Source: Patescibacteria group bacterium
Lineage (GTDB): Bacteria; Patescibacteriota; Patescibacteriia; JAHIZJ01
DNA: 62,560 nt
Reading direction: 5' to 3'
NCBI GenBank assembly: GCA_018814765.1
Contig: JAHIZJ010000085.1
Location: 1-62,560 of the forward strand
The notes under the pieces are model-generated. The model was given only the letters and a program-made list of their open reading frames with translations, was not told the origin of the DNA and searched no databases. The position numbers and the translations under genes are program-made. This document shows, piece after piece, positions 982-43,314 of the stretch. Position 1 is the first letter of the stretch. Every line of letters starts with the position of its first letter.

Positions 982-2655
982 ATGACAACACGGAATAAAG
1001 TCTGGATTGCGTTTATATTTATCATTATCCTAGCTGGATTGGCTGGGATTGTTGATTATCCAAAGGGTCCTGATCTAAAAATTGGAGACTGGACAAAAGA
1101 ACTAAAAGTACGACTCGGACTTGATTTACAGGGCGGAACACACCTAGTCTATGAGGCAGATGTGGCCAGTATACCTGTAGCTGATCGCACCTCTTCACTC
1201 GAAGGTGTACGTGACGTGATAGAACGTCGAGTAAATGCCTTTGGTATTTCCGAACCAGTTGTTCAAACAAGCAAGGTAGGCGATAGTTGGCGAGTAATCG
1301 TCGAGTTGGCTGGTGTTTTTGATATCAACGAAGCGATTCAGCAGATTGGCGAAACACCATTGCTAGAATTTCGGGAGCAAGCAGAGCCTGAGCCTTATAC
1401 TGATGAACAGCTCAGCGCTATCCGAGCACTCAATGAAGAATCAAAGAATAAAGCTAATGCTGTATTAGAAGAAGCATTATTACCTGAAGCAGATTTTACA
1501 GCATTAGCTAACCAATACTCTGAAGATCCATCAAATGTTAGTAATCAAAACGGTGGAGATTTGAACTTCTTTTTTATAGGTCAGATGGTTCCTGAATTTG
1601 AAGAGGTAGTCTTTAATCAAATGCAGGTAGGAGAGACGTATCCCGAGCTGGTAGAGACGCAATTTGGTTATCATATTATAAGAAAAACCGATGAGAGAAC
1701 AACCGGCGAAGGCGAAGAAGCAGTTGTCGAAGCCAGGGCCAGCCATATATTATTCCGCAAGCAATCAGAAGAGCCAACCGCTGCACCTGAATTTGTTAAT
1801 ACTGATTTATCAGGAAAACAGCTAGAGCGCGCTGAAGTACAATTTGATCCTAATACCGGTTCTCCTCAGGTGGCTTTAAAGTTCGATAGCGAGGGTAAAG
1901 ATTTATTCGCTGAAATAACAAAAAGAAACTTAGGGCAGGTTGTTGGTATCTACCTTGATGGTTCACCGATTAGTCAGCCAGTTGTTCAGAACGAGATTAC
2001 TTCGGGAGAAGCAGTTATCACTGGATCATTTACGTTACAGGAGTCCAAGACCTTAGCTCAGCGTCTAAATTCTGGTGCATTGCCAGTACCGGTTGAGCTG
2101 ATTAACCAACAGAACATTGGTGCATCTCTGGGCAAGGTGTCAGTGGAACGGAGCCTCTTGGCTGGGCTTATTGGATTGGCCTTTGTGGCGTTATTTATGG
2201 TTGTATATTATCGCCTACCTGGATTATTAGCTGTTATTGCTTTGGTTATCTATTCAATGATTGTTCTAGCTATATTCAAACTTTGGTCAGTGACTTTGAC
2301 ATTAGCCGGTGTGGCTGGATTTATACTTTCTATTGGTATGGCTGTGGACGCAAACGTGCTGATATTTGAACGTATTAAAGAAGAATTAAAGCTGGGCAAG
2401 CCATTGGGGAGCGCTATTGAAGAGGGCTTCAAACGTGCTTGGCTATCAATCCGTGATTCAAATATTTCCAGCTTGATTACTTGTTTTATTCTAATGTGGT
2501 TTGGCTCCAGCTTGATAAAAGGTTTTGCCGTTACATTGTCGCTTGGAATAGTTGTGAGTATGTTTTCAGCCATTACAATAACCAGAACATTTTTGCGATT
2601 GATAGCAAGTGATTGGTTAGCTAGGCATAAGGGATTATTAGGAGTAAAAAAATAA
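982..2655 (+). CDS. secD: Protein translocase subunit SecD with an inserted parvulin-like PPIase segment
   Basis: N-terminal TM segment, a P1-loop segment (LGLDLQGGTHLVYEAD) and a C-terminal 5-TM SecD/F block (GFILSIGMAVDANVLIFERIKEE). Residues about 169-236 read GGDLNFFFIGQMVPEFE...FGYHIIRK, a rotamase signature. Confidence 0.9.
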   Translation: MTTRNKVWIAFIFIIILAGLAGIVDYPKGPDLKIGDWTKELKVRLGLDLQGGTHLVYEADVASIPVADRTSSLEGVRDVIERRVNAFGISEPVVQTSKVGDSWRVIVELAGVFDINEAIQQIGETPLLEFREQAEPEPYTDEQLSAIRALNEESKNKANAVLEEALLPEADFTALANQYSEDPSNVSNQNGGDLNFFFIGQMVPEFEEVVFNQMQVGETYPELVETQFGYHIIRKTDERTTGEGEEAVVEARASHILFRKQSEEPTAAPEFVNTDLSGKQLERAEVQFDPNTGSPQVALKFDSEGKDLFAEITKRNLGQVVGIYLDGSPISQPVVQNEITSGEAVITGSFTLQESKTLAQRLNSGALPVPVELINQQNIGASLGKVSVERSLLAGLIGLAFVALFMVVYYRLPGLLAVIALVIYSMIVLAIFKLWSVTLTLAGVAGFILSIGMAVDANVLIFERIKEELKLGKPLGSAIEEGFKRAWLSIRDSNISSLITCFILMWFGSSLIKGFAVTLSLGIVVSMFSAITITRTFLRLIASDWLARHKGLLGVKK

Positions 2656-3548
2656 TGTACCAAATAATAAAAAAAAGCAAAATCTGGTATATCATTTCAG
2701 CGGTGTTTATAGTCCCTGGAATTGTATTTATTTTACTGGGTGGCCTAAAGCTTAACATTGATTTCACAGGAGGTACGCTCTGGAAGTTAAATTTTGATAC
2801 AAACAGATCAACAGCACAGGATGTTAGTGTTTATCTTGAAGAGTATGATCTGGGCGAAACAACAATACAGCCAACAAGTGACTCCAGCCTGGCAATACGT
2901 ATGAAGCCCATTGATAATGAAACTCGTCAGACCATTTTAACCTCTTTAAATGAAAAGTATGAAGGAGTTGAAGAGGAGAGCTTTGAGTCAATTGGTCCAA
3001 CTATCGGGGATGAATTAAAACGACGTGCTATGGTGGCAATCATTATAGTTTTGATATTTATTATTTTATACATTAATTGGGCATTTCGTAAAATATCAAA
3101 ATCTTCAGCTATACCAAGCTGGGCGATGGGCTTGTCTGCTATAGCGGCACTGGCACATGATATATTATTTGTGGTTGGTGCGTTTGCTTTTATGGGCCAT
3201 TTCTTTGGTATCGAGGTGGGTGCTCTTTTTGTCACAGCCCTTCTAACTATTTTAGGGTTTTCTGTTCATGATACTATTGTGGTCTATGATCGGGTTAGAG
3301 AAAACGTTATCTATGGGACCGATAGTAGCTTTGAAGAAACAGTAAACCGCAGTGTTAATCAAACGATCGTGCGATCTCTTAATACATCTTTTACCACATT
3401 ATTTGTTCTACTGGCCCTGTATCTCTTTGGAGGGGAGTCTATTAGGATGTTTGTTTTTGCAATGATATTGGGAATTGTTACAGGAACCTATTCATCAATA
3501 TTTATTGCCAGTCCATTATTAGTAATATGGCAGAAACTTAGAAAGTAG
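2655..3548 (+). CDS. secF: Protein translocase subunit SecF
   Basis: ATG overlaps the secD stop (TAATG). Motifs LNIDFTGGT and HDTIVVYDRVREN, six predicted TM segments, typical SecF length. Confidence 0.9.
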   Translation: MYQIIKKSKIWYIISAVFIVPGIVFILLGGLKLNIDFTGGTLWKLNFDTNRSTAQDVSVYLEEYDLGETTIQPTSDSSLAIRMKPIDNETRQTILTSLNEKYEGVEEESFESIGPTIGDELKRRAMVAIIIVLIFIILYINWAFRKISKSSAIPSWAMGLSAIAALAHDILFVVGAFAFMGHFFGIEVGALFVTALLTILGFSVHDTIVVYDRVRENVIYGTDSSFEETVNRSVNQTIVRSLNTSFTTLFVLLALYLFGGESIRMFVFAMILGIVTGTYSSIFIASPLLVIWQKLRK

Positions 3549-3630: not shown

Positions 3631-3652
3631 TTGCCAATATGGCAGTTTTTTT
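3631..3652 (+). terminator. Weak Rho-independent terminator after secF
   Basis: Stem TTGCCA/TGGCAG with a 3-nt loop, followed by a T7 run. Confidence 0.45.
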
Positions 3653-3667
3653 GTTAAATAATAATGC

Positions 3668-3696
3668 TTGACACATTATGTTACTTATGCTATACT
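3668..3696 (+). promoter_or_regulatory. Sigma-70-type promoter P1 upstream of 3805 operon
   Basis: TTGACA (3668-3673), 17-nt spacer, TATACT (3691-3696). Confidence 0.55.
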
Positions 3697-3804: not shown

Positions 3805-4962
3805 ATGGAAGATTCTATACTCGACAAAGTAATATCGAGCAAACAAAGCCAAGAATTAAGAGAGTTTAATCCCCCAGAGACTGTGGCTGCTTTATTGAAG
3901 CAATTAACCGATAAAGAAGAGGACATTTTAAGACGCCGATACGGATTAAATGGTAAGCATAAGCAAACCCTAGAGGAAATTGGAAAATTCTATAATTTAA
4001 CTCGTGAACGTATTAGGCAGGTTGAAAGTACAGCCATAAAGAAGCTCAAGGCTTTGAAAAACTTCTCTGACTTAATTGAGGGAATTGATCATACAATAAA
4101 ATCAGTCTTAGAGCAGAATGGTGGCGCTATTTCAAAAGAGCATTTAGTTGAACAATTATTTGAATTTACAACAGATACACCAGTTAGTCGTCAGTCGGTT
4201 ACATTTATTATTTCAAAGCTACTAAGTGACAGGTTTTTAAATCAACCCGCTACAAGCTATTTTCGTTCATCGTGGCGTTTGCCCAGTGTCTCTATAGACA
4301 GTATTCGTAAGGTGATTGACAACATGATTGTTATAATCAGTGAAAAAAATCATCCTATGACTGAACAGGAAATAACCAAAGCTTATTGGCAAAGGTATCC
4401 TAATGATGGCGCTAACGTGGATTCAAGTTTGGATGACCATGCTTTGATTGGCTACATAACCATGAGCCAAAAAATTGATCGCAACCCATTTAATGATTAT
4501 GGTTTAACTGGCTGGGGTACTATTGTTCCGCGTAGAATGAACGATAAAATATATTTGGTTTTGAAGAAAGAGGGAAAGCCTATGCATTTTATTAAAATTG
4601 CTGAGCGTATTAATAAGATTAACTTTGATAAACGTAGAGCTTACCCACCGACAGTTCACAATGAATTAATATTAAATGATCGCTATGTTCTAGTCGGTCG
4701 TGGAATATATGCTCTAAAAGAGTGGGGCTATAAGCCTGGTGTTGTGGCAGATGTGATTACACAGATACTAAAGAAAAATGGCGAACCTATGAAGCGTAAA
4801 GATATTGTTGAAGAAGTGTTAGGCCAACGTATGGTAAAAAATAATACTATCCATTTAGCTTTAACTGATACAAGTAAATTTAAACGTTTACCAGACGGAC
4901 GATATGGCTTAGTTGATGAGGCCATTGTTGAAACATCTGATTCTGCAAAAACAAACACATAA
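3805..4962 (+). CDS. Sigma-70 region-4 domain protein with C-terminal HARE-HTH-like repeats
   Basis: Residues about 25-85 (LTDKEEDILRRRYGLNGKHKQTLEEIGKFYNLTRERIRQVESTAIKKLK) match the RpoD region 4.2 consensus. I see no region 2. Two or three C-terminal segments resemble the RNAP-delta/HARE-HTH winged helix (KKEGKPMHFIKIAERI...GRGIYALKEWGY; LKKNGEPMKRKDIVEEVL...DGRYGL). Confidence 0.7.
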   Translation: MEDSILDKVISSKQSQELREFNPPETVAALLKQLTDKEEDILRRRYGLNGKHKQTLEEIGKFYNLTRERIRQVESTAIKKLKALKNFSDLIEGIDHTIKSVLEQNGGAISKEHLVEQLFEFTTDTPVSRQSVTFIISKLLSDRFLNQPATSYFRSSWRLPSVSIDSIRKVIDNMIVIISEKNHPMTEQEITKAYWQRYPNDGANVDSSLDDHALIGYITMSQKIDRNPFNDYGLTGWGTIVPRRMNDKIYLVLKKEGKPMHFIKIAERINKINFDKRRAYPPTVHNELILNDRYVLVGRGIYALKEWGYKPGVVADVITQILKKNGEPMKRKDIVEEVLGQRMVKNNTIHLALTDTSKFKRLPDGRYGLVDEAIVETSDSAKTNT

Positions 4963-4977
4963 AGTACAAATAATATT

Positions 4978-6477
4978 ATGCCATTCGAAATAGGTTTCAG
5001 CGGATCTTCGGTCACTGAAAATATACTGCCATTTACTTACTTTTGGCGTTTTTTTATTGAGGGCGGATGGATATTTTTCGGTATAGCTCTTATAATAATT
5101 GGTTATAGATTTTGGCTACTCAGAAAGCGTGAGGCCTTTATTAGATCAAAGAATTTTATATTGTTAGCCATTGATGTGCCACGCGAGATTGAACCAAATC
5201 TAAAAGCGATCGAACATATTTATTCACAGTTTGCAGGTATCTATTCCGAACCAAACCATGTTGAAAAATATCTTAAAGGAAAAGTACAACTTTATCTAAG
5301 TCTAGAGCTGGTAAGTATCGGCGGCTACATACAATTTATCATTCGTACGCCGGATAAATACCGTGATTTGGTTGAAGCTGCTTTTTATGCGCAGTATCCC
5401 GAAGCTGTCATAACTGAGGTGGAGGACTATACTGATGGAGCGGTAGAGAAGTTCCCCAATGATAAATATGAACTCTATGGTTCGGGGATAGCTTTTAATA
5501 AACCAAGTCCCTATCCGATAAAAACATACATTGCATTTGAACACAGCCTGTCGCAGGCACTGGCTGATCCAATGGCTTCTTTGTTGGAAATTCTGAGTAA
5601 AATAAAACAAGGGGAGCAGATTTGGATACAACTAGTTATCCGTCCGAAAGAAAAGAAAGATTGGCTAGATGAAGCCCAAAGGATTGTTAATAAAATTGTC
5701 GGAGAAAAAGTAGAAGCAAAAAATGCATTTGGACCACTTGGTGCCATAACGCGTGGCGCATTTCAAACCGTTACAGCCTCTCTTGTAGAATCGAACGTGG
5801 AAGAACAAAAGCAGAAAGATGGTCCAAAAAATTGGTTGATGCAGCTGACACCGGGTGAAAGATCCGTTGTGGAGGCGATTCAACTAAAGATCGCAAAAAA
5901 AGCCTATGAAACCAAATTTCGCTATATCTACCTGGCTGAAAAAGAGGTGGTTAACAAGGGTATTGGTATAAATGCTATGTTTGGCGCGTTACATCAGTTT
6001 AGTGCAATGGACCTGAATAGTTTTAGGCCGGACAAACGGACTTTTACCAAAACTAATTTCATATTCTTCTCAAAGAGTCGTTTAGCCAGAAGACAAAGGC
6101 AATTGATGAAAAATTTTAAAATGCGACAGCCGGGTCATGGTATTATCTTGAATACGGAAGAGCTGGCCAGTATTTTTCATTTCCCGACAGAAAATGTTAA
6201 AGCTCCATTGGTTAAAAAAATAGATAGCAAGCGTGGTGAACCGCCTGTCGGCTTACCCATGGAAGCCGGATACTCTCCGTTAAAATCGGTGGCTAGTGTC
6301 CCACAAGCAGAACCGGCTCCACCAGCACATACCCCTGCGCCTATGGCTCCACAGAGTGAGTCAATACCAGCACCTAGAGAACAATCGGATATTCCTACTG
6401 ACATACCTACAAAAAGAGAAACTCCACCTAGTCGTGCGGGAACAAATCAACCGCCACCTAACCTTCCTTTTGAATAA
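4978..6477 (+). CDS. Membrane-anchored uncharacterised protein, N-terminal partner of the VirD4/TraG-like ATPase
   Basis: One or two N-terminal TM segments. Clearly homologous to the N-terminal half of the 28535..31087 protein (YAQYPEAVITEVEDY vs QAQYPDAEVQQVEDY; DPMASLLEILSKIK...IQLVIRP vs DPMNALTNVLSQIK...IQILIRP; NTEELASIFHFP vs NTEELTSIFHLP). Pro-rich tail of about 60 aa. Confidence 0.8.
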   Translation: MPFEIGFSGSSVTENILPFTYFWRFFIEGGWIFFGIALIIIGYRFWLLRKREAFIRSKNFILLAIDVPREIEPNLKAIEHIYSQFAGIYSEPNHVEKYLKGKVQLYLSLELVSIGGYIQFIIRTPDKYRDLVEAAFYAQYPEAVITEVEDYTDGAVEKFPNDKYELYGSGIAFNKPSPYPIKTYIAFEHSLSQALADPMASLLEILSKIKQGEQIWIQLVIRPKEKKDWLDEAQRIVNKIVGEKVEAKNAFGPLGAITRGAFQTVTASLVESNVEEQKQKDGPKNWLMQLTPGERSVVEAIQLKIAKKAYETKFRYIYLAEKEVVNKGIGINAMFGALHQFSAMDLNSFRPDKRTFTKTNFIFFSKSRLARRQRQLMKNFKMRQPGHGIILNTEELASIFHFPTENVKAPLVKKIDSKRGEPPVGLPMEAGYSPLKSVASVPQAEPAPPAHTPAPMAPQSESIPAPREQSDIPTDIPTKRETPPSRAGTNQPPPNLPFE

Positions 6478-6479
6478 TT

Positions 6480-8138
6480 ATGGCAGAAGCTAACGTTCCA
6501 AATGATAATGTAACACTCTTCGCTGAAACAAATTATAGAAACCAGCGCAGAAGTTTTGGTATTAAGCTAGACGACCGCCGCCGCCACATGTATGTAATCG
6601 GAAAAACTGGCATGGGGAAAACAACCATGCTGGAAAATATGATAATCTCTGATATCAGGGCTGGGCATGGTGTTGCCGTGGTTGACCCCCATGGTGACTT
6701 GGTAGAGGAAATTATTGACTACATACCTCCAAGGCGAATAAATGATATAGTCTACTTTAATCCTTCGGACATTGATTATCCGATCGCTTTTAATGTTCTA
6801 GAGTCAGTTAATCCCGTACACAGGCATTTGGTGGCGTCGGGTTTATTAGGTGTGTTCAAAAAAATATGGGCTGATTCTTGGGGTCCTCGGCTGGAGTATG
6901 TATTGCGTAATACTATACTTACATTACTGGAATATCCCGGTTCCACTCTGCTTGGGATTACCCGTTTATTGGTAGATGACAAATATCGAAAAAAAGTTCT
7001 GGAAAATTTAAATGACCCCATTCTAAAAGCTTTTTGGATAGATGAATATGGTGCTTACAGCAATCAGTTTAGAACTGAAGCGATTTCTCCTATTCAGAAT
7101 AAGGTTGGTCAGTTTTTATCAAGCTCAATAATCCGTAATATTGTCGGTCAAACAAAAAGCTCCATAGACATGAGAGATATTATGGATTCAAAAAAAATAC
7201 TCTTGCTTAATCTATCAAAAGGACGCATAGGTGAAGACAATTCGGCTCTATTGGGCGCAATGATGATTACAAAGCTCCAGTTGGCAGCTATGAGCCGTGT
7301 TGATATTGAAGAGGACGAAAGAAAAGACTTTTTTCTATATGTTGATGAATTTCAGAACTTTGCCACTGAAAGTTTTGCCAATATTCTATCTGAAGCCAGA
7401 AAATACAGACTTAATCTTATAATTGCCCACCAGTATATTGAACAGATTGATGAAATAGTCAGAGCTGCAGTCTTTGGTAATGTAGGTACGCTGGTGAGCT
7501 TCCGTATAGGTGCGGCTGATGCTGAGTTTTTAGAAAAGGAATTTGAGCCTGTTTTCACTATGAACGATCTGGTGAATTTAACAAAATATGAAGTATACCT
7601 GAAGCTTATGATTGATGGTATGGCATCTGAGCCATTTTCAGCAAAAGGACTGCCACCACTCTTGGGAGACAAACCAGAGGATAATCGCGGCAAGGTAATA
7701 AATATTTCGCGTGAGCGGTATGCTAACCAACGTAGTGTTGTTGAAGATAAAATAATGCGCTGGACAGGAATGCATGAGGACCAGCAACCAGAGAAAAACA
7801 GCCAAGTAAGTGGTACGGACAAAAAAAATAACAGAAAACCCGAAAGACGAAATAATTTTTCCAACAATCAGAAAGGCCGATTTTCTAAAAATGATTCACC
7901 AAGACGCCCAGCACCAAGTTATACAAATACCAAGAAGGAAGAAGTGCGGGTTATTGAAGAGAAAGTCACTACACAGCCAGCCATAAGCCTACAAGAGGCG
8001 GTTACTCGTGAGCCGGTTTCGTTTAAGAATAGACGTAAGCCATCTCAGAATAGGCCTGATAATCGCAAGGAAAATCCAAGAGGACCTAGCGGGAATACAC
8101 AAAAGAGTATACGGCCCGACGAGGTAGTACGTTTTTAG
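6480..8138 (+). CDS. VirD4/TraG/TraD-like P-loop NTPase (type IV coupling-protein family), soluble form
   Basis: Walker A GKTGMGKTT (nt 6600-6626), DPHGDL motif, Walker B-like LYVDEFQNF, SEARKYRLNLIIAHQY. Lys/Arg-rich disordered C-terminal tail of about 110 aa. The start lies 2 nt after the upstream stop. Confidence 0.75.
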   Translation: MAEANVPNDNVTLFAETNYRNQRRSFGIKLDDRRRHMYVIGKTGMGKTTMLENMIISDIRAGHGVAVVDPHGDLVEEIIDYIPPRRINDIVYFNPSDIDYPIAFNVLESVNPVHRHLVASGLLGVFKKIWADSWGPRLEYVLRNTILTLLEYPGSTLLGITRLLVDDKYRKKVLENLNDPILKAFWIDEYGAYSNQFRTEAISPIQNKVGQFLSSSIIRNIVGQTKSSIDMRDIMDSKKILLLNLSKGRIGEDNSALLGAMMITKLQLAAMSRVDIEEDERKDFFLYVDEFQNFATESFANILSEARKYRLNLIIAHQYIEQIDEIVRAAVFGNVGTLVSFRIGAADAEFLEKEFEPVFTMNDLVNLTKYEVYLKLMIDGMASEPFSAKGLPPLLGDKPEDNRGKVINISRERYANQRSVVEDKIMRWTGMHEDQQPEKNSQVSGTDKKNNRKPERRNNFSNNQKGRFSKNDSPRRPAPSYTNTKKEEVRVIEEKVTTQPAISLQEAVTREPVSFKNRRKPSQNRPDNRKENPRGPSGNTQKSIRPDEVVRF

Positions 8139-8147
8139 ATACCAAAA

Positions 8148-8681
8148 ATGAAAAATTATATCCTAATCAGTACATTAGTAATATTTCTTTTTTTACCTCG
8201 AGTAGTTAAGGCCGAAACGCCTGTCGAGTTGTATTATTTTTATGAAAATGATTGTTCTGCCTGCTCTGACATGAGTGATACTCTGGAGTTTCTCAGGAAC
8301 AAATATACTGGGACCATGATTAGTAGATTTGATGTTACTGATGACTTGGTCAAGCGAACAATTTTTAATGACTTGTTGGATATTTATCGTGAACCACAGA
8401 CCTCAGTGCCGACAGTATTTGTGGGTAGTGATGTGTTTGTCGGTTACACAGCTCTATCAACAAATGAGATTGAGACAGCTATACAATACTGCCAATTGAA
8501 TAACTGCCCTTCACCCAGCGAATTACTAAAAGACTATTACGCCAGTCTTTCAGGGGAAGAGACAGACAATACCAGCAAGATAGTATTCTGGACAATTTTT
8601 ATAGTAGCTTGGCCATTATTGGGAGCAGTTGCCGTGATTATCGTTTTAAGGAAATATAAAGATAAGGATATACAAGGATAG
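8148..8681 (+). CDS. Exported thioredoxin/glutaredoxin-like CxxC protein with C-terminal TM anchor
   Basis: Signal peptide MKNYILISTLVIFLFLPRVVKA, CSAC motif in a YYFYENDCSACSD context, C-terminal hydrophobic helix IVFWTIFIVAWPLLGAVAVIIVL. Confidence 0.6.
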   Translation: MKNYILISTLVIFLFLPRVVKAETPVELYYFYENDCSACSDMSDTLEFLRNKYTGTMISRFDVTDDLVKRTIFNDLLDIYREPQTSVPTVFVGSDVFVGYTALSTNEIETAIQYCQLNNCPSPSELLKDYYASLSGEETDNTSKIVFWTIFIVAWPLLGAVAVIIVLRKYKDKDIQG

Positions 8682-8776: not shown

Positions 8777-8832
8777 TCTTAGGTGAAAATAGAAGAAAAC
8801 TTCCTACCGTTAAATAAGCGGTTTTTTATTAC

Positions 8833-14764: not shown

Positions 14765-16657
14765 ATGTCGAAGATTTTAGGAATTGACTTAGGTACGACT
14801 AACTCCGCCATGGCGGTAATCGAGGGGGGAAAGCCTAAAGTATTAGAAAACAAGGAAGGAGCTAGAACCACTCCCTCAGTGGTAGCAATTTCCAAGAATG
14901 GTGAACGACTGGTTGGCACTACAGCCAAGAGGCAAGCCGTTACTAATCCCGAGAATACAATATTCTCTATCAAACGATTGATAGGCCGTCGTCATGAAGA
15001 TGAACAGGTTCAGGATGATACAAAAACCCTACCCTATAAAATAAAAAAGTCAGGTGAGGGTATAGCGGTAGCAATGAATGATAAAGACCACACGCCACAG
15101 GAGATTTCAGCTATGATTTTACAGAAGCTAAAGGCCGATGCAGAAGAAAAGCTTGGTGAGACAATCACAGACGCGGTTATAACAGTTCCAGCATACTTTG
15201 ATGATTCTCAACGACAGGCTACTAAGGATGCAGGTAAAATTGCCGGTTTAAACGTTATGCGAATTATCAATGAACCAACGGCCGCTGCTTTAGCCTATGG
15301 GTTTGAAAAGAAAAAGGGTGAACAGATCGCCGTTTATGATTTAGGAGGTGGTACGTTTGATATATCGATTTTAGATGTATCGGCTGACACTGTTGAAGTT
15401 AAATCAACCAATGGCGACACTCATTTGGGCGGTGATGATTTTGATAAAAAGATTATTGATTGGATTATTGAAGAGTACAAAAAAGACCAAGGGGTTGATC
15501 TATCAAATGATGTTCTAGCACTGCAACGACTGAAGGAAGCTGCGGAAAAGGCAAAAATTGAACTATCAACCTCTTCAGAGACTGAAATTAACCAACCGTT
15601 TATTACTCAAGACTCATCTGGGCCGAAGCACTTGGTTCTCAAGATGACTCGGGCAAAGCTGGAGGAGCTGGTTGGTGATTTGGTTGAAGCTACGTTGGAG
15701 CCGGTTAAAAAAGCGCTAGATGACGCCAAACTAAAAACAGAAGATATCGAAGAGGTTATATTGGTTGGCGGACAAACACGTATGCCTTTGGTTCAGGCAA
15801 CTGTGGAAAAATTCTTTGGGAAGAGGCCCCACTTAGGTGTTAATCCTGATGAAGTAGTGGCAATTGGTGCTGCTGTCCAAGCTGGAGTGCTTCAAGGCGA
15901 TGTAAAAGATGTCCTCTTGCTGGATGTAACGCCATTGACATTTGGTCTGGAAACATTGGGCGGTGTTCGTACTCCATTGATTGATCGTAATACAACAATC
16001 CCAACCTCAAAAAGCCAGGTGTTCTCAACCGCAGCCGATAATCAGTCAACAGTAGAAATACACGTTCTTCAGGGGGAGAGAGACATGGCTCAGGACAATA
16101 AAACTCTGGGTCGATTTATCCTTGATGGGATTCCACCGGCTCCTAGGGGGGTTCCACAGGTTGAGGTTACGTTTGATATAGATGCCAACGGTATTCTCAA
16201 GGTCACAGCCAAAGATAAGGCTACTAACAAATCTCAACATATAACAATCCAAGCTTCAACGGGTCTATCCAAAGACGAAGTAGAGAAAATGAAGAAAGAC
16301 GCTGAGGCCCATGCGGGAGAGGATAAAAAGAAGAAAGAACTAATCGAAGCTCGAAATATGGCTGACACTTTAGTTTACACTGCCGAGAAAGCTGTACGTG
16401 AAGCTAAAGATAAAGTAAAAGATGATGACAAAAAAGACATTGAATCCAAGATAGAAGCCCTTAAAAAGGTTAAAGACAATGATGACTTAGAAGCCATCAA
16501 GAAAGCCACCGAAGAACTAAGCCAAGCGGCTCAAAAAATAGGTCAGGCAATGTATGGTCAGCCGGGACAGCCAGGACAACAGACACCGCCTCCAGGATCC
16601 GCCACGGGCGGAAAAGACGAAGGTCCGGTTGAAGGCGAAGTAGAGGATAGTAAATAA
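14765..16657 (+). CDS. dnaK: Chaperone DnaK (Hsp70)
   Basis: [18 protein letters not shown] and [11 protein letters not shown] signatures; 630 aa. Confidence 0.98.
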
Positions 16658-16701
16658 TTGGTTAATTGGATGATTAGTTGATTTGTTGACTGGAGAGATT
16701 G

Positions 16702-16912
16702 AAAAAAGGCCCGGTCAGACAAGGTCCAACCGGGCTAGCGAAACGGAGAATCAGGGATCACAGCAAGGTCGATAGGATCAATAGCTACGTAGAGCCGTGG
16801 CGTACTCCAACGAAGAAACGTTAGCTGGGGACCGAACGAGTCTTCGCGGTAACTAGTGACCCAGCAGCTAGCCTATCTGGTCACCCCATTCCTCCTTGTC
16901 CTGAGGAAGGAC
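16702..16912 (-). ncRNA. Candidate sRNA, array unit 1 (about 210 nt)
   Basis: Minus-strand promoter TTTACA (16947-16942), N17, TATTAT (16924-16919). The terminator has a 12-bp stem (16709-16735) with G:U pairs only in the minus-strand reading, followed by U6. 5' GGAGGAAUGGGG is imperfectly complementary to 3' CCCUGAUUCUCC. Confidence 0.7.
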
Positions 16913-16953
16913 AAGTATATAATAGTTGAATATAATAACTGTGTAAAGTGAAT

Positions 16954-17181
16954 AAAAAAAGAACCCCCCCACCCATGATACATGAATGCATATGGGTGAG
17001 GGGCGAGTGCGGAGAAACGGGAAGCTGATGAACAGATGCAGAGCCGATGGCTATTAAAGAGCGCCTAAGACGCCCCAACCCCAGGAAACTCCGATCCCCC
17101 TTTTTATCTTTGTTCCCCAGTAATAGCTAAAGCTCTGCAAAGCCCATAGCTCCAGTCTCTCCAGCGGGGCGACAGAACGTC
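16954..17181 (-). ncRNA. Candidate sRNA, array unit 2 (about 228 nt)
   Basis: Promoter TTGACA (17216-17211), N17, TATTAT (17193-17188). Terminator stem CCCCUCACCCAU/AUGGGUGGGGGGG followed by UUCUUUUUUU. 5' GC(U)GGAGAGAC pairs with 3' GUUUCUCCGC. Confidence 0.7.
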
Positions 17182-17222
17182 CTAAATATAATAAAATATT
17201 AGATATTATTTGTCAAATTAAT

Positions 17223-17454
17223 AAAAAAAGAACCTGGCCAGACAAATGCCTAACCGGGCTAGCGGAGGAATAGAGGTCCCGGCGTACCGACAAAAAGTGA
17301 CAGGAACGCTGAAGTAATCTCGTGCCACAAGCCCTTGCGTTATCCCCGAGGAGTCTGCCGGAGCAGTTGGGGAAAAGGAAGGATTCGCGACCAACAGCAT
17401 CCGCAGTCATAGTCGGTCGCTATTCTAGATTCCTCCAGTATACGGGTGGTATGC
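17223..17454 (-). ncRNA. Candidate sRNA, array unit 3 (about 232 nt)
   Basis: Promoter TTTACA (17489-17484), N17, TGATAT (17466-17461). The terminator hairpin is homologous to those of units 1 and 5 (one mismatch) and is followed by U7. 5' GGAGGAAU (17436-17429) is exactly complementary to 3' AUUCCUCC (17271-17264). Confidence 0.65.
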
Positions 17455-17495
17455 ATCCACATATCAAACGATAATAGATATTTTGTAAAGAGAGA

Positions 17496-17687
17496 TAAAA
17501 TCCCGGTAGAACTGTTGTCCTACCGGGTCGGAGAAACAGGCATGGGTAAACTGAAACTACTGGCATGAATGGGGCCCCATCACTAGATAGACGGATTAGT
17601 ACCTTTGCAGGCCGGGAAGCCCATCTACACGAGTAACGGCATCCATCGTACGTATCAGCTACCGAACTGTTTCTCCTCGAACGTGGT
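17496..17687 (-). ncRNA. Candidate sRNA, array unit 4 (about 192 nt)
   Basis: Promoter TTTACA (17722-17717), N17, TAAAAT (17699-17694). 8-bp terminator stem CCCGGUAG/CUACCGGG followed by a U-rich tail. 5' GGAGAAACAG (17676-17667) is exactly complementary to 3' CUGUUUCUCC (17539-17530). Confidence 0.7.
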
Positions 17688-17744
17688 ATGTACATTTTAT
17701 ATAAATAACGCTATTTTGTAAAGTTGCAGGATGGTTCAGGATAG

Positions 17745-17954
17745 AAAAAGGCCCGGCCAGACAGAGTCTAACCGAGCCGAAGTGGAGAAACGGGAGTCAC
17801 AGAAGGTCATAGAGCTAGGTGTTACGAGGGGTGCCAGGAAACACCCAAGATAGGAAAAAGTCCGCTTGCCAAAGAGCTAATTCCCAATGTAACCACCACG
17901 CTTGACTCATCAGTTATCCTTGTCTCTCCGTGCATCATAGGAGGTTCTATGACA
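17745..17954 (-). ncRNA. Candidate sRNA, array unit 5 (about 210 nt)
   Basis: Promoter TTGACA (17989-17984), N17, TAACAT (17966-17961). 13-bp terminator stem GGCUCGGUUAGAC/GUCUGGCCGGGCC followed by U5. 5' GGAGAGAC is complementary to 3' GUUUCUCC. Confidence 0.7.
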
Positions 17955-18055
17955 AGATTCATGTTACAATTATAGAAGTTGATTGTCAATAATAAAGAAT
18001 TGGCAGGCGAGGATAGTCATAAAAAATGACAGCAGGGAGTGATTTTGGAGCTGTT

Positions 18056-27840: not shown

Positions 27841-27999
27841 AGTTTTCCTCCATTCATGAAGAACCTTTGAGTTCTGTAACAAGCCAACAAAGATCAATTG
27901 AACTGAATAGGATAGCATGAAGAGGTATTTCTGTCAATACATAGTTTAAAGAAAGACTTGCTAAAAAGCCTTTTTTATGATATATTTAATCAGACGAGT

Positions 28000-28530
28000 A
28001 TGCAATTTTCACAAGAAGACAAAAAACTAAATGCTGAAAAACAGCATCAGTCCATCAAAGAATCTGAAACCGGAAGGTTAAAACCCGAACCCGGCCGTGT
28101 TGAAGTTGAAAGAGACATTGAGAGAAAAACTGAGCAAGAAGATGTAACTAAAAAAGAAAAAGATCGTTCCTTACAGGATACGAAGGAAACAACAACAGCC
28201 GTCCCACAACCCACTCCTTCAGTCCCAGTAACTCCAAGCAAGACTGCTGTGCGTCAGCAAGTAGAGAATATACTAGAGGAGGATTTACAAGAGATATACC
28301 AACGCATGGACGATAAATCAAAAAAGCGATTCAAAAACGAAGGAGAAAAAACAGCCAGTAAAATAGAAATACTTCTAATTGGCACCCGCGTAAAAGTCAA
28401 TAGTATATTTAAACTTATTAAAAAATGGTTACGCGTTATTCCCGGTGTGAATAAATACTTCCTAGAACAAGAGGCCAAAATAAAAACAGACAAACTCATT
28501 CTGATTAAAAAAGACCAAGACCAAGAATAA
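28000..28530 (+). CDS. Highly charged Lys/Glu-rich hypothetical protein upstream of fused ATPase
   Basis: ORF track start is a TTG at 27958. The first ATG, at 28000, fits a putative TTGCTA-N17-TATATT promoter (27958-27986). The stop lies 4 nt before the 28535 start. Confidence 0.5.
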   Translation: MQFSQEDKKLNAEKQHQSIKESETGRLKPEPGRVEVERDIERKTEQEDVTKKEKDRSLQDTKETTTAVPQPTPSVPVTPSKTAVRQQVENILEEDLQEIYQRMDDKSKKRFKNEGEKTASKIEILLIGTRVKVNSIFKLIKKWLRVIPGVNKYFLEQEAKIKTDKLILIKKDQDQE

Positions 28531-28534
28531 AACT

Positions 28535-31087
28535 ATGATTGGTGTATTAGTAACATTACCCGCAGCTACAGAGACGGACACAACATTTGGAATTGCCTCG
28601 GGAGAATCTTTATTATTTAATATTTTTCTGATTATTGGAGCTGTCATAGTACTGATTGTACTCCTTTTTTTAGTTAGGAAGATATTTATATACAGTGGAC
28701 GAATGCCCAGCGCGTTACGCCGAACAATATTACTTGTTACCGTACCAAAAGAACATATGGAGCTGGAAGAAAAGAGTGATCGTCCTCAAGGAGGCATAAA
28801 AGAATTAATGGGGGTGTCCGAGGCTCTCTATGCAAATTTTGGTGGTGTAGTCAGACAACAAAAGTGGTACTCACGTCTTATCTTTGGTCGGCAGGATCAC
28901 ATATCGTTAGAAATAGTGGCTAATCAGGGATACGTTTCATTTTATTTTGTAACACCCGATAGGTATAAGGAATTTGTTGAACAGCAGATTCAGGCACAAT
29001 ACCCCGACGCTGAAGTACAGCAAGTAGAGGACTACAATATTTTTTCACCCAGCGGTGTAATCCGTTGTAATTACTTGAAGTTAATAAAACGAAGCATGTT
29101 TCCCATTAGGACATATCAGAAACTGGAAACAGACCCTATGAATGCCCTGACAAACGTCTTGAGTCAGATCAAAGAACCGGAAGGAGCTGCTATTCAAATA
29201 TTGATTCGTCCAGCACCCAAGAGATGGCAATCAGGGGCTCTAGAATACTCCCGACGGGTTGTCAAAGGCAAGGGAGAAAAGGGCATACTTGAGGGGGCTA
29301 TGGGGGGGATTTTAAGTTCAGCAGTTTCCAGCAAAGAAGGTGACCAAAAAGAGTTGGAAAAAGAGCGTATGTATAGAATGTCACCGGTTGAGGAAGAGAA
29401 GATAAAAGCCGTAGGAGAAAAGGTCAGCAAGCTGGGATTTGAAACAAATATCAGGGTTATAGTCTCAGCCAGTGATTCCGATCGAGCTCAAGTGTTCACT
29501 GAAAACATTATTAATAGTTTTTCACAATATTCATCACAAGAAGTAGGCAATAGTTTTAGGCGTATACGTGTTTTAAGAAAAGGAAGATTTATTCGGGACT
29601 TTATATATCGTCACTTCAGGTCTAGGTATAGGTATGTACTAAACACCGAAGAGCTTACCAGTATATTTCACCTACCTCTATCTAATACAGAAACACCCAA
29701 TATTCGATGGTCTGTCGCTAAGCATTCTGCTCCACCGGTCGAGCTACCAAATGAAGGAATAATCTTGGGTGTTAGTCATTATCGCGGTAAGGATTTATTG
29801 GTACGTCTTAAGGAAGATGACCGACGTCGCCACCTTTATACTATTGGTAAGTCAGGTACAGGAAAATCAGTTTTTCTGACTAATCTGGCCGTTCAAGATA
29901 TTAAAAATGGCAAAGGTGTTTGTGTTGTTGATCCACATGGTGATTTAATTGAAGATATACTAGGTCAGATTCCTGAAGAAAGGGTTGACGATGTAATTAT
30001 ATTCAATCCATCGGATATGGATCGGCCGGTTGGCTTAAATATGCTTGAAGCCAGTTCACCGGAAGAAAAGGATTTTGCGGTTCAGGAAATGATTGCAATC
30101 TTCTATAAACTCTTCCCGCCGGAGATGATTGGTCCAATGTTTGAACATAATATGAGAAATGTTATGTTGACATTGATGTCTGACCTGGAGCACCCGGGCA
30201 CAATAGTGGAAATTCCTCGCATGTTTACAGATCCAGTTTTCCAAAAAGAAAGATTAAAGAAAGTAACTGATCCGGTTGTTAGAAGTTTTTGGGAAAAAGA
30301 AATGGCCAAAACTACTGATTTTCATAAATCAGAGATGTTGGGATATCTGATCTCCAAGGTAGGGCGCTTCGTTGAAAATGAAATGATGCGAAATATTATT
30401 GGCCAATCCTGTTCTGGTTTTGATTTCAAAGAAATAATGAACAACAAGAAAATACTACTTGTTAACCTATCGAAAGGTAAGACGGGAGAGGTTAATAGCT
30501 CACTTCTGGGGCTCATAATAGTATCAAAGTTACAGATGGCTGCATTATCCAGGGCGGACGTGGCACAAGAAGAAAGGTCTGATTTTTATCTCTATATTGA
30601 CGAGTTCCAAAACTTTATTACTGATAGTATCGCCACAATATTATCTGAAGCTAGAAAATACCGATTGAATTTAACCATTGCACATCAATATATTGGACAA
30701 TTGGTTGAAAATAACGATACTAAGATTCGGGACGCTGTTTTGGGAAATGCCGGAACCATAGTTGCTTTTAAGATAGGTGTTGAAGATTCAGAAATTGTTT
30801 CAAAAATATTTGCCCCGGTTTTCAATGATTATGATGTACTGAATATAGAGAAGTATAATGCTTATATTAAATTATTGGTTGACAATCAACCAACGAGAGC
30901 CTTTAACTTTGCTACTATTCCTCCTATGACAGGCAACAGAGAATTAGCGGAACGAATAAAAGAACTTTCACGAACCAAATATGGTCATGATAAAAAGCAA
31001 GTAGAGTCTGAAATAGCAGAACGTGGGCGCTTGGGTATGGCAGATGCTTCAGCAGTACGTGATTTTGGCTCTGAACCAAAAGTATAA
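28535..31087 (+). CDS. Fused membrane module + VirD4/TraG-like P-loop NTPase (850 aa)
   Basis: The N-terminal half is homologous to 4978..6477 and the C-terminal half to 6480..8138 (RRRHLYTIGKSGTGKS...VVDPHGDLIEDI...FYLYIDEFQNF...SEARKYRLNLTIAHQY). Confidence 0.85.
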   Translation: MIGVLVTLPAATETDTTFGIASGESLLFNIFLIIGAVIVLIVLLFLVRKIFIYSGRMPSALRRTILLVTVPKEHMELEEKSDRPQGGIKELMGVSEALYANFGGVVRQQKWYSRLIFGRQDHISLEIVANQGYVSFYFVTPDRYKEFVEQQIQAQYPDAEVQQVEDYNIFSPSGVIRCNYLKLIKRSMFPIRTYQKLETDPMNALTNVLSQIKEPEGAAIQILIRPAPKRWQSGALEYSRRVVKGKGEKGILEGAMGGILSSAVSSKEGDQKELEKERMYRMSPVEEEKIKAVGEKVSKLGFETNIRVIVSASDSDRAQVFTENIINSFSQYSSQEVGNSFRRIRVLRKGRFIRDFIYRHFRSRYRYVLNTEELTSIFHLPLSNTETPNIRWSVAKHSAPPVELPNEGIILGVSHYRGKDLLVRLKEDDRRRHLYTIGKSGTGKSVFLTNLAVQDIKNGKGVCVVDPHGDLIEDILGQIPEERVDDVIIFNPSDMDRPVGLNMLEASSPEEKDFAVQEMIAIFYKLFPPEMIGPMFEHNMRNVMLTLMSDLEHPGTIVEIPRMFTDPVFQKERLKKVTDPVVRSFWEKEMAKTTDFHKSEMLGYLISKVGRFVENEMMRNIIGQSCSGFDFKEIMNNKKILLVNLSKGKTGEVNSSLLGLIIVSKLQMAALSRADVAQEERSDFYLYIDEFQNFITDSIATILSEARKYRLNLTIAHQYIGQLVENNDTKIRDAVLGNAGTIVAFKIGVEDSEIVSKIFAPVFNDYDVLNIEKYNAYIKLLVDNQPTRAFNFATIPPMTGNRELAERIKELSRTKYGHDKKQVESEIAERGRLGMADASAVRDFGSEPKV

Positions 31088-31259: not shown

Positions 31260-31904
31260 ATGTCAGATACAACAAAACTAAAAAAAATAAAAGAAGCCAT
31301 AGAAAACGCTCAAACAAACATCCAAATGGCTAAGCATTTACTTTCGGAAATGGGTATTACTAGCGATGTAGACATTGATGATGAACCAGCCGGAGCAGTA
31401 GAAGGAAAAGTAAGCGAAGGGCCGGAGGGTAAGATTATTGAAGGAATCTTTGATGGTCAGAACATGAATGGGCCGGATGGAAAACAGTACTCAGTCCCAG
31501 CAAACTATGCTTCAAAGTCGAAGCTAGTTGAAGGCGACACGCTCAAGCTCACAATTACTCCGGACGGATCCTTTGTCTATAAGCAGATTGGACCAATAGA
31601 TAGACTGCGGGTTGTAGGCACTCTAACCAAGGATGACCAAACAAGTGAGTTCCGTGTTTTGGCAAAAAATAAAAGCTTCAAAGTACTATTGGCAAGCGTT
31701 ACATATTTCAAAGGAGAATCTGGCGATGAAGTCGTTATTCTTATACCTAAAGATAAAGACACTAAATGGGCAGCTGTAGAGAACATTATTAAGAAGGGTG
31801 AAGAAGTAAAAACAGTTATTGATGAAGACAATGTAAATATAATAGATGATACTGATGACGACCTACTGGACGATAAGCCTGAAGAAAAAGTGGATACTGA
31901 GTAG
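31260..31904 (+). CDS. Hypothetical protein with acidic C-terminal tail
   Basis: N-terminal helix, central beta-rich region and a DDTDDDLLDD tail. No family recognised. Confidence 0.6.
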   Translation: MSDTTKLKKIKEAIENAQTNIQMAKHLLSEMGITSDVDIDDEPAGAVEGKVSEGPEGKIIEGIFDGQNMNGPDGKQYSVPANYASKSKLVEGDTLKLTITPDGSFVYKQIGPIDRLRVVGTLTKDDQTSEFRVLAKNKSFKVLLASVTYFKGESGDEVVILIPKDKDTKWAAVENIIKKGEEVKTVIDEDNVNIIDDTDDDLLDDKPEEKVDTE

Positions 31905-40052: not shown

Positions 40053-40070
40053 AAATTCTTAAGGTATAGT

Positions 40071-40910
40071 ATGAAATCAAAAAAATCGCTATTCATTATA
40101 CTTAGTATTATGGTTGTTGTATGGCTGGTAGCTGTGTCATATCTTCTGATAGCTAATAATAGTACTGATACAGACGAAGTAGCTGAAAGTGCTAATCAGA
40201 AAGAGGAGGTAAATGAAAGCATAAACACCAATTCCAACGATGAAACGCCCGCTGGTACGCTAAAGCTAACGCGAAGCAGGTTTGCTGTTGGAGAAAAAAT
40301 AGAATTTACGATAGACAATATTGAAGTGAATTACTGTTCAAATGTATTGCCATATCGAATTACAGACAGTCAGGGAGATGTGCTAAATATCCGACACTCC
40401 TGTGCTGGATTGGCTGGGTATGGGATAGATCAATATTGTGAAGACGGTCAGGTGGTTATTCAGCAAACCGATGACATATGTTCAGACCACATATCCTGTG
40501 AATCACAAAATGTATCAGGCGTATTTACTTGGGATCAAAAAACATATCAAGCAGTATCTGATGTTTGTGGCGATCAGCAAATTTCACGTGAAGAAGCAAT
40601 ACAAGCAGGGGCTGGTATATATCACATACTTATTACTGACACGGACGAAAAAGTGTATAATGAAACATTCACCATATCTGGTAGTCAGGTAGTAACTGAG
40701 TGCAGTGAAAATTCTGAATGTAATACCGGTGGCTGTTCGGGGGAAGTCTGTGGAGTAAAAGGATTGGTAGAAACAATTTCTTCTCCTTGTGTGGCTCGGC
40801 CCTATTATCAATGTTATAGTCTCACTTCATGTGGGTGTATCAACGGCCAATGTAAATGGGAAAGCAACGATAATTTTGATAAATGTTTTGAGGAAAAAAT
40901 GAATGAGTAA
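40071..40910 (+). CDS. N-terminally anchored Cys-rich exoprotein
   Basis: N-terminal TM segment. 16 Cys residues, including a C-terminal cluster CSENSECNTGGCSGEVCG...CVARPYYQCYSLTSCGCINGQCKW. Confidence 0.6.
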   Translation: MKSKKSLFIILSIMVVVWLVAVSYLLIANNSTDTDEVAESANQKEEVNESINTNSNDETPAGTLKLTRSRFAVGEKIEFTIDNIEVNYCSNVLPYRITDSQGDVLNIRHSCAGLAGYGIDQYCEDGQVVIQQTDDICSDHISCESQNVSGVFTWDQKTYQAVSDVCGDQQISREEAIQAGAGIYHILITDTDEKVYNETFTISGSQVVTECSENSECNTGGCSGEVCGVKGLVETISSPCVARPYYQCYSLTSCGCINGQCKWESNDNFDKCFEEKMNE

Positions 40911-41499
40911 ATTAATACATTTAAAAAAGAAAAAATTTGCAGTAGGCAGCAAAATAGAAGTTATATTTTTTTCCTTAGTGGCTATAGCTTTTATACTGGC
41001 GATGGTGTTAGCCTTATTAAATTATGACACGGAGCCGTCTTCAGCTGATCAACCAGCAAGTATCGTAACAACAAATATGAGACAGGCGAACGTTAATGTG
41101 TCGACAGAAAAAGACTATCAGACTGAGATACTAGAGCTACAGTCAGAATATTTATCAGACAATCCTATCATTAGCGACGATGTCTTTACAGGTGAAAATG
41201 AAGTAGCTTTGTATAAGCAAAGACAGGTTGTGCTTAATAAGACTCATCAAAAAGTTCTTAATCTCTCTGTACCAAAAGAGTATCAATCATTGCATTTAAG
41301 TATTGCCCAAATATATTCTCAGCTATCTGCCATCACTGATAGCATGATAGAGTCGCTAAAATACCAGAACGGTTTAGACGGGTATAGCTTAGATGAAGCA
41401 AAAGCTATAGAATATAGATTAGCTGCTGAGGAACAGACGGTAGCGACCGATCTTAGGATTGAGAGTCTGGTGAGTGAGTATAGTTGGTTAAAGTTTTAA
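40903..41499 (+). CDS. N-terminally anchored hypothetical protein
   Basis: The ATG overlaps the upstream stop by 8 nt. One TM segment followed by a helical domain. Confidence 0.6.
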   Translation: MSKLIHLKKKKFAVGSKIEVIFFSLVAIAFILAMVLALLNYDTEPSSADQPASIVTTNMRQANVNVSTEKDYQTEILELQSEYLSDNPIISDDVFTGENEVALYKQRQVVLNKTHQKVLNLSVPKEYQSLHLSIAQIYSQLSAITDSMIESLKYQNGLDGYSLDEAKAIEYRLAAEEQTVATDLRIESLVSEYSWLKF

Positions 41500-41504
41500 T
41501 AAGT

Positions 41505-42572: not shown

Positions 42573-42590
42573 TGCGTAAAATAAAAACGT

Positions 42591-43310: not shown

Positions 43311-43314
43311 ATTC

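Follow-up and report, generated by a model that had tools for sequence, protein, structure and literature searches.

The coupling proteins of type IV secretion systems (T4SSs), typified by TrwB and VirD4, carry two N-terminal transmembrane (TM) helices directly before the ATPase domain and have no DUF8128 domain. The ultra-small Patescibacteria, a group that contributes a large part of bacterial diversity, live on other cells and are unable to make nucleotides. Homologues of the type IV coupling proteins (T4CPs) are already known from these bacteria, where they occur, unexplained, at about two per genome, away from virB4 and without relaxases, according to a genome survey (PMC12102498; Microb Genom 2025). 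In the present work we analysed a 62,560-nt contig (JAHIZJ010000085.1, assembly GCA_018814765.1) of a Patescibacteria group bacterium, hereafter the window; all positions refer to the full contig stretch. Judged from sequence comparison, two neighbouring genes of a four-gene cluster in this window are a single T4CP split into two polypeptides, of which a second, unsplit copy is also present.

The cluster consists of four open reading frames (ORFs), all on the + strand, and the ORF coordinates bear out the tight spacing (gaps of 15, 2 and 9 nt) given in the initial annotation of this DNA. The fused paralog lies about 20 kb from the split pair.

3805-4962, + strand: gene 1, 385 aa; sigma-70 region 4 and two HARE-HTH winged helices
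4978-6477, + strand: gene 2, 499 aa; N-terminal half of the split T4CP, DUF8128 (PF26449)
6480-8138, + strand: gene 3, 552 aa; C-terminal half of the split T4CP, TrwB/VirD4-type P-loop ATPase
8148-8681, + strand: gene 4, 177 aa; exported or membrane-tethered CxxC thioredoxin-like protein
28535-31087, + strand: fused paralog, 850 aa; TM helix at aa 29-47, DUF8128 at about aa 60-408, T4CP ATPase at about aa 404-830

The fused paralog carries the argument. Its residues 23-408 are colinear with the gene 2 product (29% identity, E 2e-38) and residues 404-827 with the gene 3 product (44% identity, E 6e-130). A single chain encoded in the same window thus aligns with both, which is direct evidence that genes 2 and 3 make up one functional protein; the machine is encoded two times here, as a pair of polypeptides and as a single chain. 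The same-chain N-terminal membrane anchor that is a T4CP trait is present in the fused paralog; gene 3 has no hydrophobic segment, the anchor lying on gene 2 instead. The initial annotation had described an orphan operon in which a membrane adaptor partners the ATPase. The partnership is upheld by the fused paralog, which is itself a second T4CP-type gene, so that the operon is no orphan in this window; the adaptor, in turn, is better described as the N-terminal half of the T4CP, given the fused paralog and a Bacillus plasmid T4CP with the same module (see below).

The point of fission, together with a duplicated PPxxLP motif, can be read in 65 sequences. In the fused form the junction has the sequence ...HFPLPxTETPNIRWxxAKxSAPPVNLPxEG-LILGKNxYRGxE...DRRRHxYxIGKSGxGKS. 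Gene 2 proteins of the split form retain ...HFPTxTVKAPLVKKxESKRGEPPxGLPxE, which is followed by a variable Pro-rich linker and, at the very end, by the motif once more, as PPxNLP; split ATPases start with a short variable leader followed by (D/E)(I/V)T(L/P)FAxTN(F/Y)R, the counterpart of LILGKNxYRG.

The gene 3 product scores above the Pfam cut-offs for TrwB_AAD_bind (43.0 bits, cut-off 20.5), DUF87 (30.4, cut-off 23.2) and TraG-D_C (23.8, cut-off 22), and the C-terminal half of the fused paralog matches T4SS-DNA_transf (46.1 bits, cut-off 20.1), TrwB_AAD_bind (31.5) and TraG-D_C (29). DUF87 also matches bona fide T4CPs and VirB4. FtsK_SpoIIIE reached 16.1 bits on gene 3 against a cut-off of 24, over the P-loop only, and no FtsK gamma domain was found by Pfam, which leaves the protein outside the FtsK family. 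HerA_C likewise fell short (14.9, cut-off 22) while DUF87 passed, and HerA structures rank under the T4CPs in the fold search. AAA_10 and CagE_TrbE_VirB gave no Pfam match on gene 3 or the fused paralog, so that neither classifies as a VirB4 ATPase. The coupling-protein motifs listed in the initial annotation are all found in gene 3, including Walker A (GKTGMGKT), Walker B (VDEFQNF) and DPHGDL; the Walker residues are invariant across 39 fused homologues. The best matches of gene 3 among sequences in the Protein Data Bank (PDB) are TrwB of R388 and DotL, both T4CPs.

Pairwise scores of the ATPase domains were 388 bits between the split and fused forms, 207-234 bits between either form and an Embleya plasmid T4CP, 141-159 bits with the Bacillus T4CP, and 20-34 bits with the VirB4 ATPase domains of the same plasmids. 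In the structural model of the fused protein (pLDDT 76) an all-helical insert, aa 509-622, lies between the Walker A and Walker B strands, and the alignment with gene 3 (44% identity) extends over this region, the insert itself being seen in the fused model. The best fold match of the model is full-length VirB4 (E 1e-12, an alignment exceeding 900 columns); DotL (5e-10), TrwB (2e-8; target-normalised TM-score (TMt) 0.56-0.59), Cagbeta and HerA come next. On the strength of the Pfam, PDB and pairwise scores and of the all-helical insert, we place the ATPase with the T4CPs of the monoderm kind and apart from FtsK and VirB4, and probably from HerA proper. This agrees with its description in the initial annotation as a VirD4/TrwB-type relative; the profile searches proposed there side with the T4CPs, and the grouping with FtsK that was named as a possible refutation did not appear.

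The last 123 residues of gene 3 (aa 430-552) form a basic, disordered tail with 23% Lys+Arg and a net charge of +12, as the initial annotation had noticed. Such a tail is a feature of the split ATPases, with a median length of 140 aa and a net positive charge in 106 of 118 homologues; the fused form is without it. It ends in a conserved motif, xP(G/D)(Q/E)V(V/I)(K/R/H)(F/L), which in the window protein reads IRPDEVVRF. Terminal peptides on disordered linkers are known to hold T4CP partners, for example TraD with TraM of the F plasmid (PMC12857230).

Gene 2 has the layout TM helix, DUF8128 alpha/beta domain, variable Pro-rich linker and conserved C-terminal PPxNLP peptide. A single hydrophobic segment at about aa 25-48 is followed by RKREAFIRSK, from which the positive-inside rule predicts that the bulk of the protein is cytoplasmic, and 18 Pro residues stand among the last 70 aa; the anchor and the Pro-rich tail had both been recognised in the initial annotation. 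DUF8128 (PF26449.1) is precomputed on a protein identical to the gene 2 product and on nearly all homologues; our own Pfam scan gave no PF26449 match on gene 2, and that copy of Pfam may lack the model. Named members of the family among the homologues are all "hypothetical."

An AlphaFold model of DUF8128 built from 37 sequences (pLDDT 77, core mostly above 90) was compared with the PDB by Foldseek, and the significant matches were only nine TrwK/VirB4 chains from R388 cryo-EM structures (E 2e-4 to 8e-3, probability 0.96-1.0, TM about 0.33). TrwB, HerA, FtsK and other RecA-like ATPases were not among them. Since TrwB, HerA and FtsK are without the N-terminal domain of VirB4, we infer from these matches, which come without reported residue ranges, that it is this domain that the DUF8128 model resembles. 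The DUF8128 profile found nothing among PDB sequences at E up to 10, and hhalign showed no similarity between DUF8128 and a Bacillus VirB4; the VirB4 link therefore lies at the level of fold only.

Relatives outside the Patescibacteria were sought by tblastn against 72,556 plasmids, which gave 390 records, the informative ones being conjugation clusters. On Bacillus subtilis plasmid NZ_CP154917 (27.5 kb) an 885-aa homologue adjoins a Replic_Relax relaxase, conjugal transfer genes and VirB4 (AAA_10, 387 bits), and on Embleya plasmid NZ_CP108778 an 812-aa homologue has VirB4 on one side and a Replic_Relax relaxase on the other, PrgI/VirB3 and an NlpC/P60 hydrolase being close by. The DUF8128 profile aligns with aa 52-295 of the Bacillus protein (hhalign 97.5%, E 8.6e-12), and plain tblastn places the module 5' of the ATPase, or fused to it, on two Bacillaceae plasmids. 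At least some conjugative T4CPs of the Bacillota thus have the predicted order TM helix, DUF8128, T4CP ATPase.

Three further plasmid findings are recorded here as observations. A fused DUF8128-T4CP homologue is broken into pieces on Pontibacillus plasmid NZ_CP062975 (locus L094, 8956-12948) and also on Priestia megaterium NZ_CP045273; the frame stops after the Walker A sequence GMTGVGK, resumes about 250 nt on and again about 1.5 kb on, and this could be a pseudogene or the insertion of intervening elements at the P-loop. A Pontibacillus megaplasmid encodes a sigma-like protein close to a DUF8128-ATPase gene, considered as a conserved partner outside the Patescibacteria, an idea that was dropped because this protein has no similarity to gene 1. 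The closest relative of gene 3 outside the Patescibacteria (40% identity, E 6e-93) consists of an ATPase alone, 395 aa long, on the alphaproteobacterial Sulfitobacter plasmid NZ_CP081110 (locus L087, 7004-8191); it lies between a recombinase and transposases, has no adjacent DUF8128 gene and is possibly the result of horizontal transfer.

Within the Patescibacteria both forms are widespread. The products of gene 2, gene 3 and the fused paralog each have an identical counterpart at NCBI from a "Patescibacteria group bacterium." Homologues of gene 3 number in the thousands; they share about 57-77% identity with it, come from Kerfeldbacteria, Nomurabacteria and other groups, and are named at NCBI [quoted passage not shown] Homologues of gene 2 and of the fused form occur across the phylum at about 55-75% identity (55-70% for the fused form). 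A pattern scan with one genome per species found relatives in at least 575 species, apparently all Patescibacteria, and an exhaustive profile search with DUF8128 gave 3415 clusters at 50% identity, the best 150 of which are close family members. Among the fused-form matches listed, 120 of 120 combine PF26449 with T4CP or DUF87 ATPase domains in a single chain. The two forms are equally widespread, and several long contigs carry both. In 2.9 million viral contigs the DUF8128 module is practically absent, with one marginal match.

Neighbours were counted by tblastn of six window proteins against 80 species loci, the denominators being the loci with enough flanking sequence. The DUF8128 gene is followed directly by the ATPase gene in at least 50 of 66 loci (48 by script plus two with overlapping matches), and secF lies within 3 kb upstream of it in 38 of 66; the complete order secD-secF-gene 1-DUF8128-ATPase recurs in one Nomurabacteria and one Kerfeldbacteria genome. 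The setting of the fused paralog is fixed as well: corA, small gene, fused gene, small gene, dnaX. The two small genes of the window are:

27958-28530, + strand: small upstream gene, 190 aa, directly 5' of the fused paralog; no family match
31260-31904, + strand: small downstream gene, 214 aa, directly 3' of the fused paralog; no family match

Neither has a match in the Pfam, NCBIfam or PADLOC scans. They resemble the genes at the same positions in two loci of distant Patescibacteria, L085 and L086, at 42-47% (upstream) and 62-74% (downstream) identity, and may be partners of the fused T4CP. Base composition is flat over the window. Taken together, distribution and gene order show both forms to be core genes of the Patescibacteria that are passed on vertically, not parts of a mobile element. 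As a separate observation, several records titled "uncultured Gammaproteobacteria" (L007, L014, L016, L083 and others, including the 931-kb "chromosome" OZ246400.1) carry the Patescibacteria-specific secDF-DUF8128-T4CP order and are probably mislabelled metagenome-assembled genomes (MAGs) of Patescibacteria.

The first and last genes of the cluster are less firmly attached to it. The gene 1 product is soluble and, in agreement with the initial annotation, contains Sigma70_r4 at aa 30-82 (54 bits) and HARE-HTH in two stretches at about aa 245-369 (42 bits; both Pfam). Region 4 stands alone: sigma region 2 was not found and all sigma-factor models of Pfam and NCBIfam scored far under cut-off, which sets the protein apart from sigma-70 family sigma factors. 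The model for RpoE, the delta subunit of RNA polymerase (TIGR04567), reached 41.9 against a cut-off of 42, and the C-terminal third has a net charge of +10 in place of the acidic tail of RpoE, so that it does not qualify as RpoE either. Gene 1 likely encodes a DNA- or RNA polymerase-binding accessory protein. Gene 1 could have an accessory role in substrate handling. However, both sigma region 4 and HARE-HTH are RNA polymerase-associated elsewhere, and tblastn places gene 1 directly 5' of the DUF8128 gene at no more than 43 of the 74 species loci (58%), so that it may also be just a syntenic transcription factor.

The gene 4 product begins with a hydrophobic leader, contains a CSAC motif and has a TM segment at its C-terminal end, as expected of the exported CxxC protein seen in the initial annotation. 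Its thioredoxin-type matches are all below cut-off (TraF-like 18.4 against 232, YruB glutaredoxin-like 15.6 against 88.6, Pfam also) and cover the CxxC stretch only, too little for membership in a thioredoxin-like or TraF-like family. There was no tblastn match to gene 4 in 84 related loci (the 80 species loci and L001-L004). A homologue of 179 aa with 41% identity is present in the close relatives L090 and L091; since two DsbA genes then follow, gene 4 appears to belong with disulfide-bond functions, and its distribution marks it as a clade-specific passenger outside the conserved unit.

The signals around the cluster, and its upstream neighbours, are:

982-2655, + strand: secD, upstream neighbour
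2655-3548, + strand: secF, upstream neighbour
3631-3645, after secF and before the promoter-like site: terminator-like hairpin (consensus match only)
3668-3696, + strand: promoter-like site, TTGACA-17-TATACT with TG, 11/12 consensus positions (consensus match only)
8806-8822, + strand, 3' of gene 4: terminator-like hairpin with T-run (consensus match only)

These sites fit a four-gene transcription unit. An operon that also includes secDF was rejected for this genome, because the terminator-like and promoter-like sites separate secF from gene 1 and make secDF a separate unit. The single operon of the initial annotation therefore stands as a predicted transcription unit; as a conserved unit it does not, in view of the distribution of genes 1 and 4.

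How would such a protein work? The gene 2 product would anchor the gene 3 product at the membrane, with the two halves reassembling as a T4CP-like hexamer. The terminal PPxNLP of the gene 2 linker might dock on the N-terminus of the ATPase and so re-create without a covalent bond the junction of the fused form. ATP hydrolysis would then drive substrate recruitment or threading. The substrate is probably nucleic acid or nucleoprotein, given the basic tail, the precedent of the family and the DNA-binding protein encoded in the same transcription unit. Accessories that bind substrate or partner may be found in the basic tail with its terminal docking peptide and in the gene 1 protein. We consider the chances even that this split, monoderm-type T4CP is a reassembled membrane translocase whose more likely partner is a VirB4-type T4SS encoded elsewhere. 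According to PMC12102498, VirB4 was detected in 2417 of 3035 Patescibacteria genomes (80%), and the self-contained DNA translocation device proposed in the initial annotation stays hypothetical. The function of the device is uncharacterised, as was stated there, and orphan T4CPs of Patescibacteria had already been reported in the same paper. Altogether, the observations of the initial annotation are confirmed in part and its interpretation is supported in part.

Several points weigh against this explanation or parts of it. No VirB4, VirB6, pilin or relaxase was found in Pfam and NCBIfam scans of window ORFs of at least 120 aa, and VirB8/9/10 and pilus ATPases are likewise missing there, as the initial annotation had held; nor were relaxase or mating-pair-formation genes, which accompany T4CPs elsewhere, found in the related loci examined. 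By the survey of PMC12102498, T4CP homologues are present in 2918 of 3035 genomes (96%), in 5713 copies or about two per genome, so that at least 501 genomes have a T4CP and no detected VirB4; 148 of the 5713 copies lie near virB4, and a relaxase is present in 103 genomes. The same paper cites transposon sequencing (Tn-seq) work on S. epibionticum, in which the T4CP homologue was dispensable for epibiotic growth and the T4SS genes were essential, and its authors regard exaptation of the T4CP homologues as possible. An obligatory link to the T4SS is made less likely by these data. The N-termini of the Embleya and Haladaptatus T4CPs match DUF8128 in colinear fashion at hhalign E 3e-3 and 6e-3, too weak to be counted as evidence, and the likeness to the VirB4 N-terminal domain, with TM about 0.33 in Foldseek, is suggested without sequence-profile backing. 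We infer, moreover, the assembly of the halves, the hexamer, the substrate and the role of gene 1. On the other side, the excess of T4CP over VirB4 could reflect draft genomes and incomplete MAGs, with two gene copies aiding detection, and two paralogs could mask each other in single-gene knockouts.

A T4CP that serves a VirB4 system in trans is accordingly rated only slightly above an independent nucleic-acid translocase. In this second reading, tentative and less probable than the first, the same split T4CP machine would work without a VirB4 T4SS as a stand-alone membrane-anchored translocase, possibly pulling host-derived or environmental RNA or DNA in, or exporting it, through another envelope channel. 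The survey figures just given, with T4CPs commoner than VirB4 and almost never near it and relaxases rare, fit this well, as does a homologue that is non-essential where the T4SS is essential; so do the very high sequence conservation, the housekeeping neighbourhoods, and the basic tail next to a co-transcribed DNA-binding protein. A 2026 preprint describes a cultivated ectoparasite of a widespread, metabolically reduced lineage that imports host RNA, and leaves the uptake route open. However, neither conserved neighbourhood holds a channel-forming partner, the one TM helix of gene 2 is too little for a pore unless oligomeric, the numerical excess may be an effect of incomplete MAGs and two copies, and all T4CPs characterised so far act together with a T4SS or some other secretion machine (PMC12857230). 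A stronger form, that both T4CP-type ATPases are cytoplasmic-membrane motors for the uptake or hand-over of host-derived nucleic acids and not coupling proteins of a VirB4 system, we think unlikely. If it were true, handling of the polymer would fall to the basic tail and the gene 1 protein, and there would be living T4CPs that still have a VirB4-type N-terminal domain, which bears on the divergence of VirB4 and T4CP.

A housekeeping chromosome motor, such as an FtsK/SftA-like septal DNA pump with gene 1 reading the DNA, would account for membership of the ATPase in the FtsK-HerA superfamily, for the core-gene behaviour beside dnaX or secDF and for the adjacent DNA-binding protein. It is improbable in view of the sub-threshold FtsK_SpoIIIE score, the gamma domain not found, nearest relatives that are conjugative T4CPs, and the annotation of TM7x with an ftsK of its own (PMC10768705). 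Least probable is a remnant of an integrated conjugative or other mobile element, or else a module for anti-phage defence with a HerA-like ATPase at its base, to which the plasmid location of the closest non-Patescibacteria relatives, a PADLOC mad8 match of 56.6 bits, weak HerA matches and a resemblance of gene 1 to MzaA in sigma region 4 might point, but the surroundings of the cluster show neither integrase nor relaxase, neither a repeat boundary nor a shift in composition, the same secDF gene order recurs in distant Patescibacteria, and the other MADS, MZA and HerA defence components are absent among the seven proteins of the two clusters scanned by PADLOC. The defence reading was rejected for want of partner genes, and a phage or mobile origin on account of the single marginal viral match and the even composition.

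The remaining ORFs of at least 120 aa in the window are housekeeping and cell-envelope genes, among them hrcA, grpE, dnaK, dnaJ, cysS, corA, dnaX, trxB, metK and many glycosyltransferases. SecD (982-2655) contains an inserted parvulin-type rotamase; its orthologues are annotated with PF00639/PF13616 inside SecD, the window protein has GYHII, and the SecD-foldase fusion appears to be typical of Patescibacteria. Between dnaK and a GIY-YIG-like ORF lie 1.3 kb (16700-18000, + strand) with no ORF longer than 91 aa, in the bin (16001-18000) with the highest GC of the window, 0.46. A hairpin-forming motif, AAAAAGGCCCGGYCAGACA..GTCYAACCGRGC, is present here in three copies at 16703, 17226 and 17745 (spacing 523 and 519 nt), two of the three being preceded by an AT-rich stretch, and Rfam, searched to E 0.1, gave nothing for the region, which looks like a tandem array of three genes, each of about 520 nt, for structured non-coding RNAs of an undescribed family. 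At 37785-44070 (+ strand) six co-directional genes with almost no family matches, including one for a 755-aa protein and one whose product carries an eight-cysteine-cluster domain (TIGR04289, 57.7 bits, cut-off 50), are followed by a PDZ protein gene and are probably a cell-surface module. A 1014-aa ORF at 57883-60927 (- strand), at the end of a polysaccharide-synthesis cluster, has no Pfam or NCBIfam match.

The T4CP homologues counted in PMC12102498 are almost certainly the same genes as the split and fused forms described here. Within the portion consulted, that paper does not describe the split/fused pair, the DUF8128 module, the VirB4-like fold, the conserved neighbourhoods or the tail motifs, and a literature search of incomplete coverage found no paper mentioning DUF8128 and no description of the fused/split pair, the identity of DUF8128 as N-terminal domain of the T4CP, its VirB4-like fold, the fixed neighbourhoods or the terminal motifs. 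New in our analysis are the pair of forms, the recognition that the upstream "unknown" gene is half of a motor, the fixed housekeeping neighbourhoods, and an N-terminal module common to the motor, to T4CPs of conjugative plasmids and, at the level of fold, to VirB4. The natural gene fission shows where a domain boundary and a putative docking peptide lie in a T4CP, and the findings together give concrete constructs and knockouts to test with regard to how material passes across the patescibacterial membrane.

The closest described systems are the T4CPs of monoderm (MPF-FATA type) plasmids, whose ATPase domains share 30-31% identity with gene 3 and 28-31% with the ATPase domain of the fused paralog. 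The Bacillus protein also has a DUF8128-like module N-terminal to its ATPase, the same layout as in the fused paralog. The plasmid genes, however, lie beside Replic_Relax relaxase, VirB4, PrgI/VirB3 and cell-wall hydrolase genes, whereas those of Patescibacteria are chromosomal, among housekeeping genes and without a relaxase; they are also far more conserved and exist in two forms, one of them split. With TrwB, VirD4, DotL and Cagbeta they share the P-loop domain with its all-alpha insertion and the Pfam families TrwB_AAD_bind and TraG-D_C, and TrwB, DotL and Cagbeta match the fused model at TMt 0.43-0.59. Unlike the canonical T4CPs, they combine a single TM helix with a domain of some 350 aa, both of which the split form encodes apart from the ATPase; the split form also bears the basic C-terminal tail. 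VirB4 (TrwK of R388) is alike in having an N-terminal alpha/beta domain followed by an FtsK/HerA-type ATPase; it differs in that the ATPase sequence here is not VirB4-like (20-34 bits) and contains the T4CP-type all-alpha insert, and in that DUF8128 has no profile similarity to a VirB4 N-terminus.

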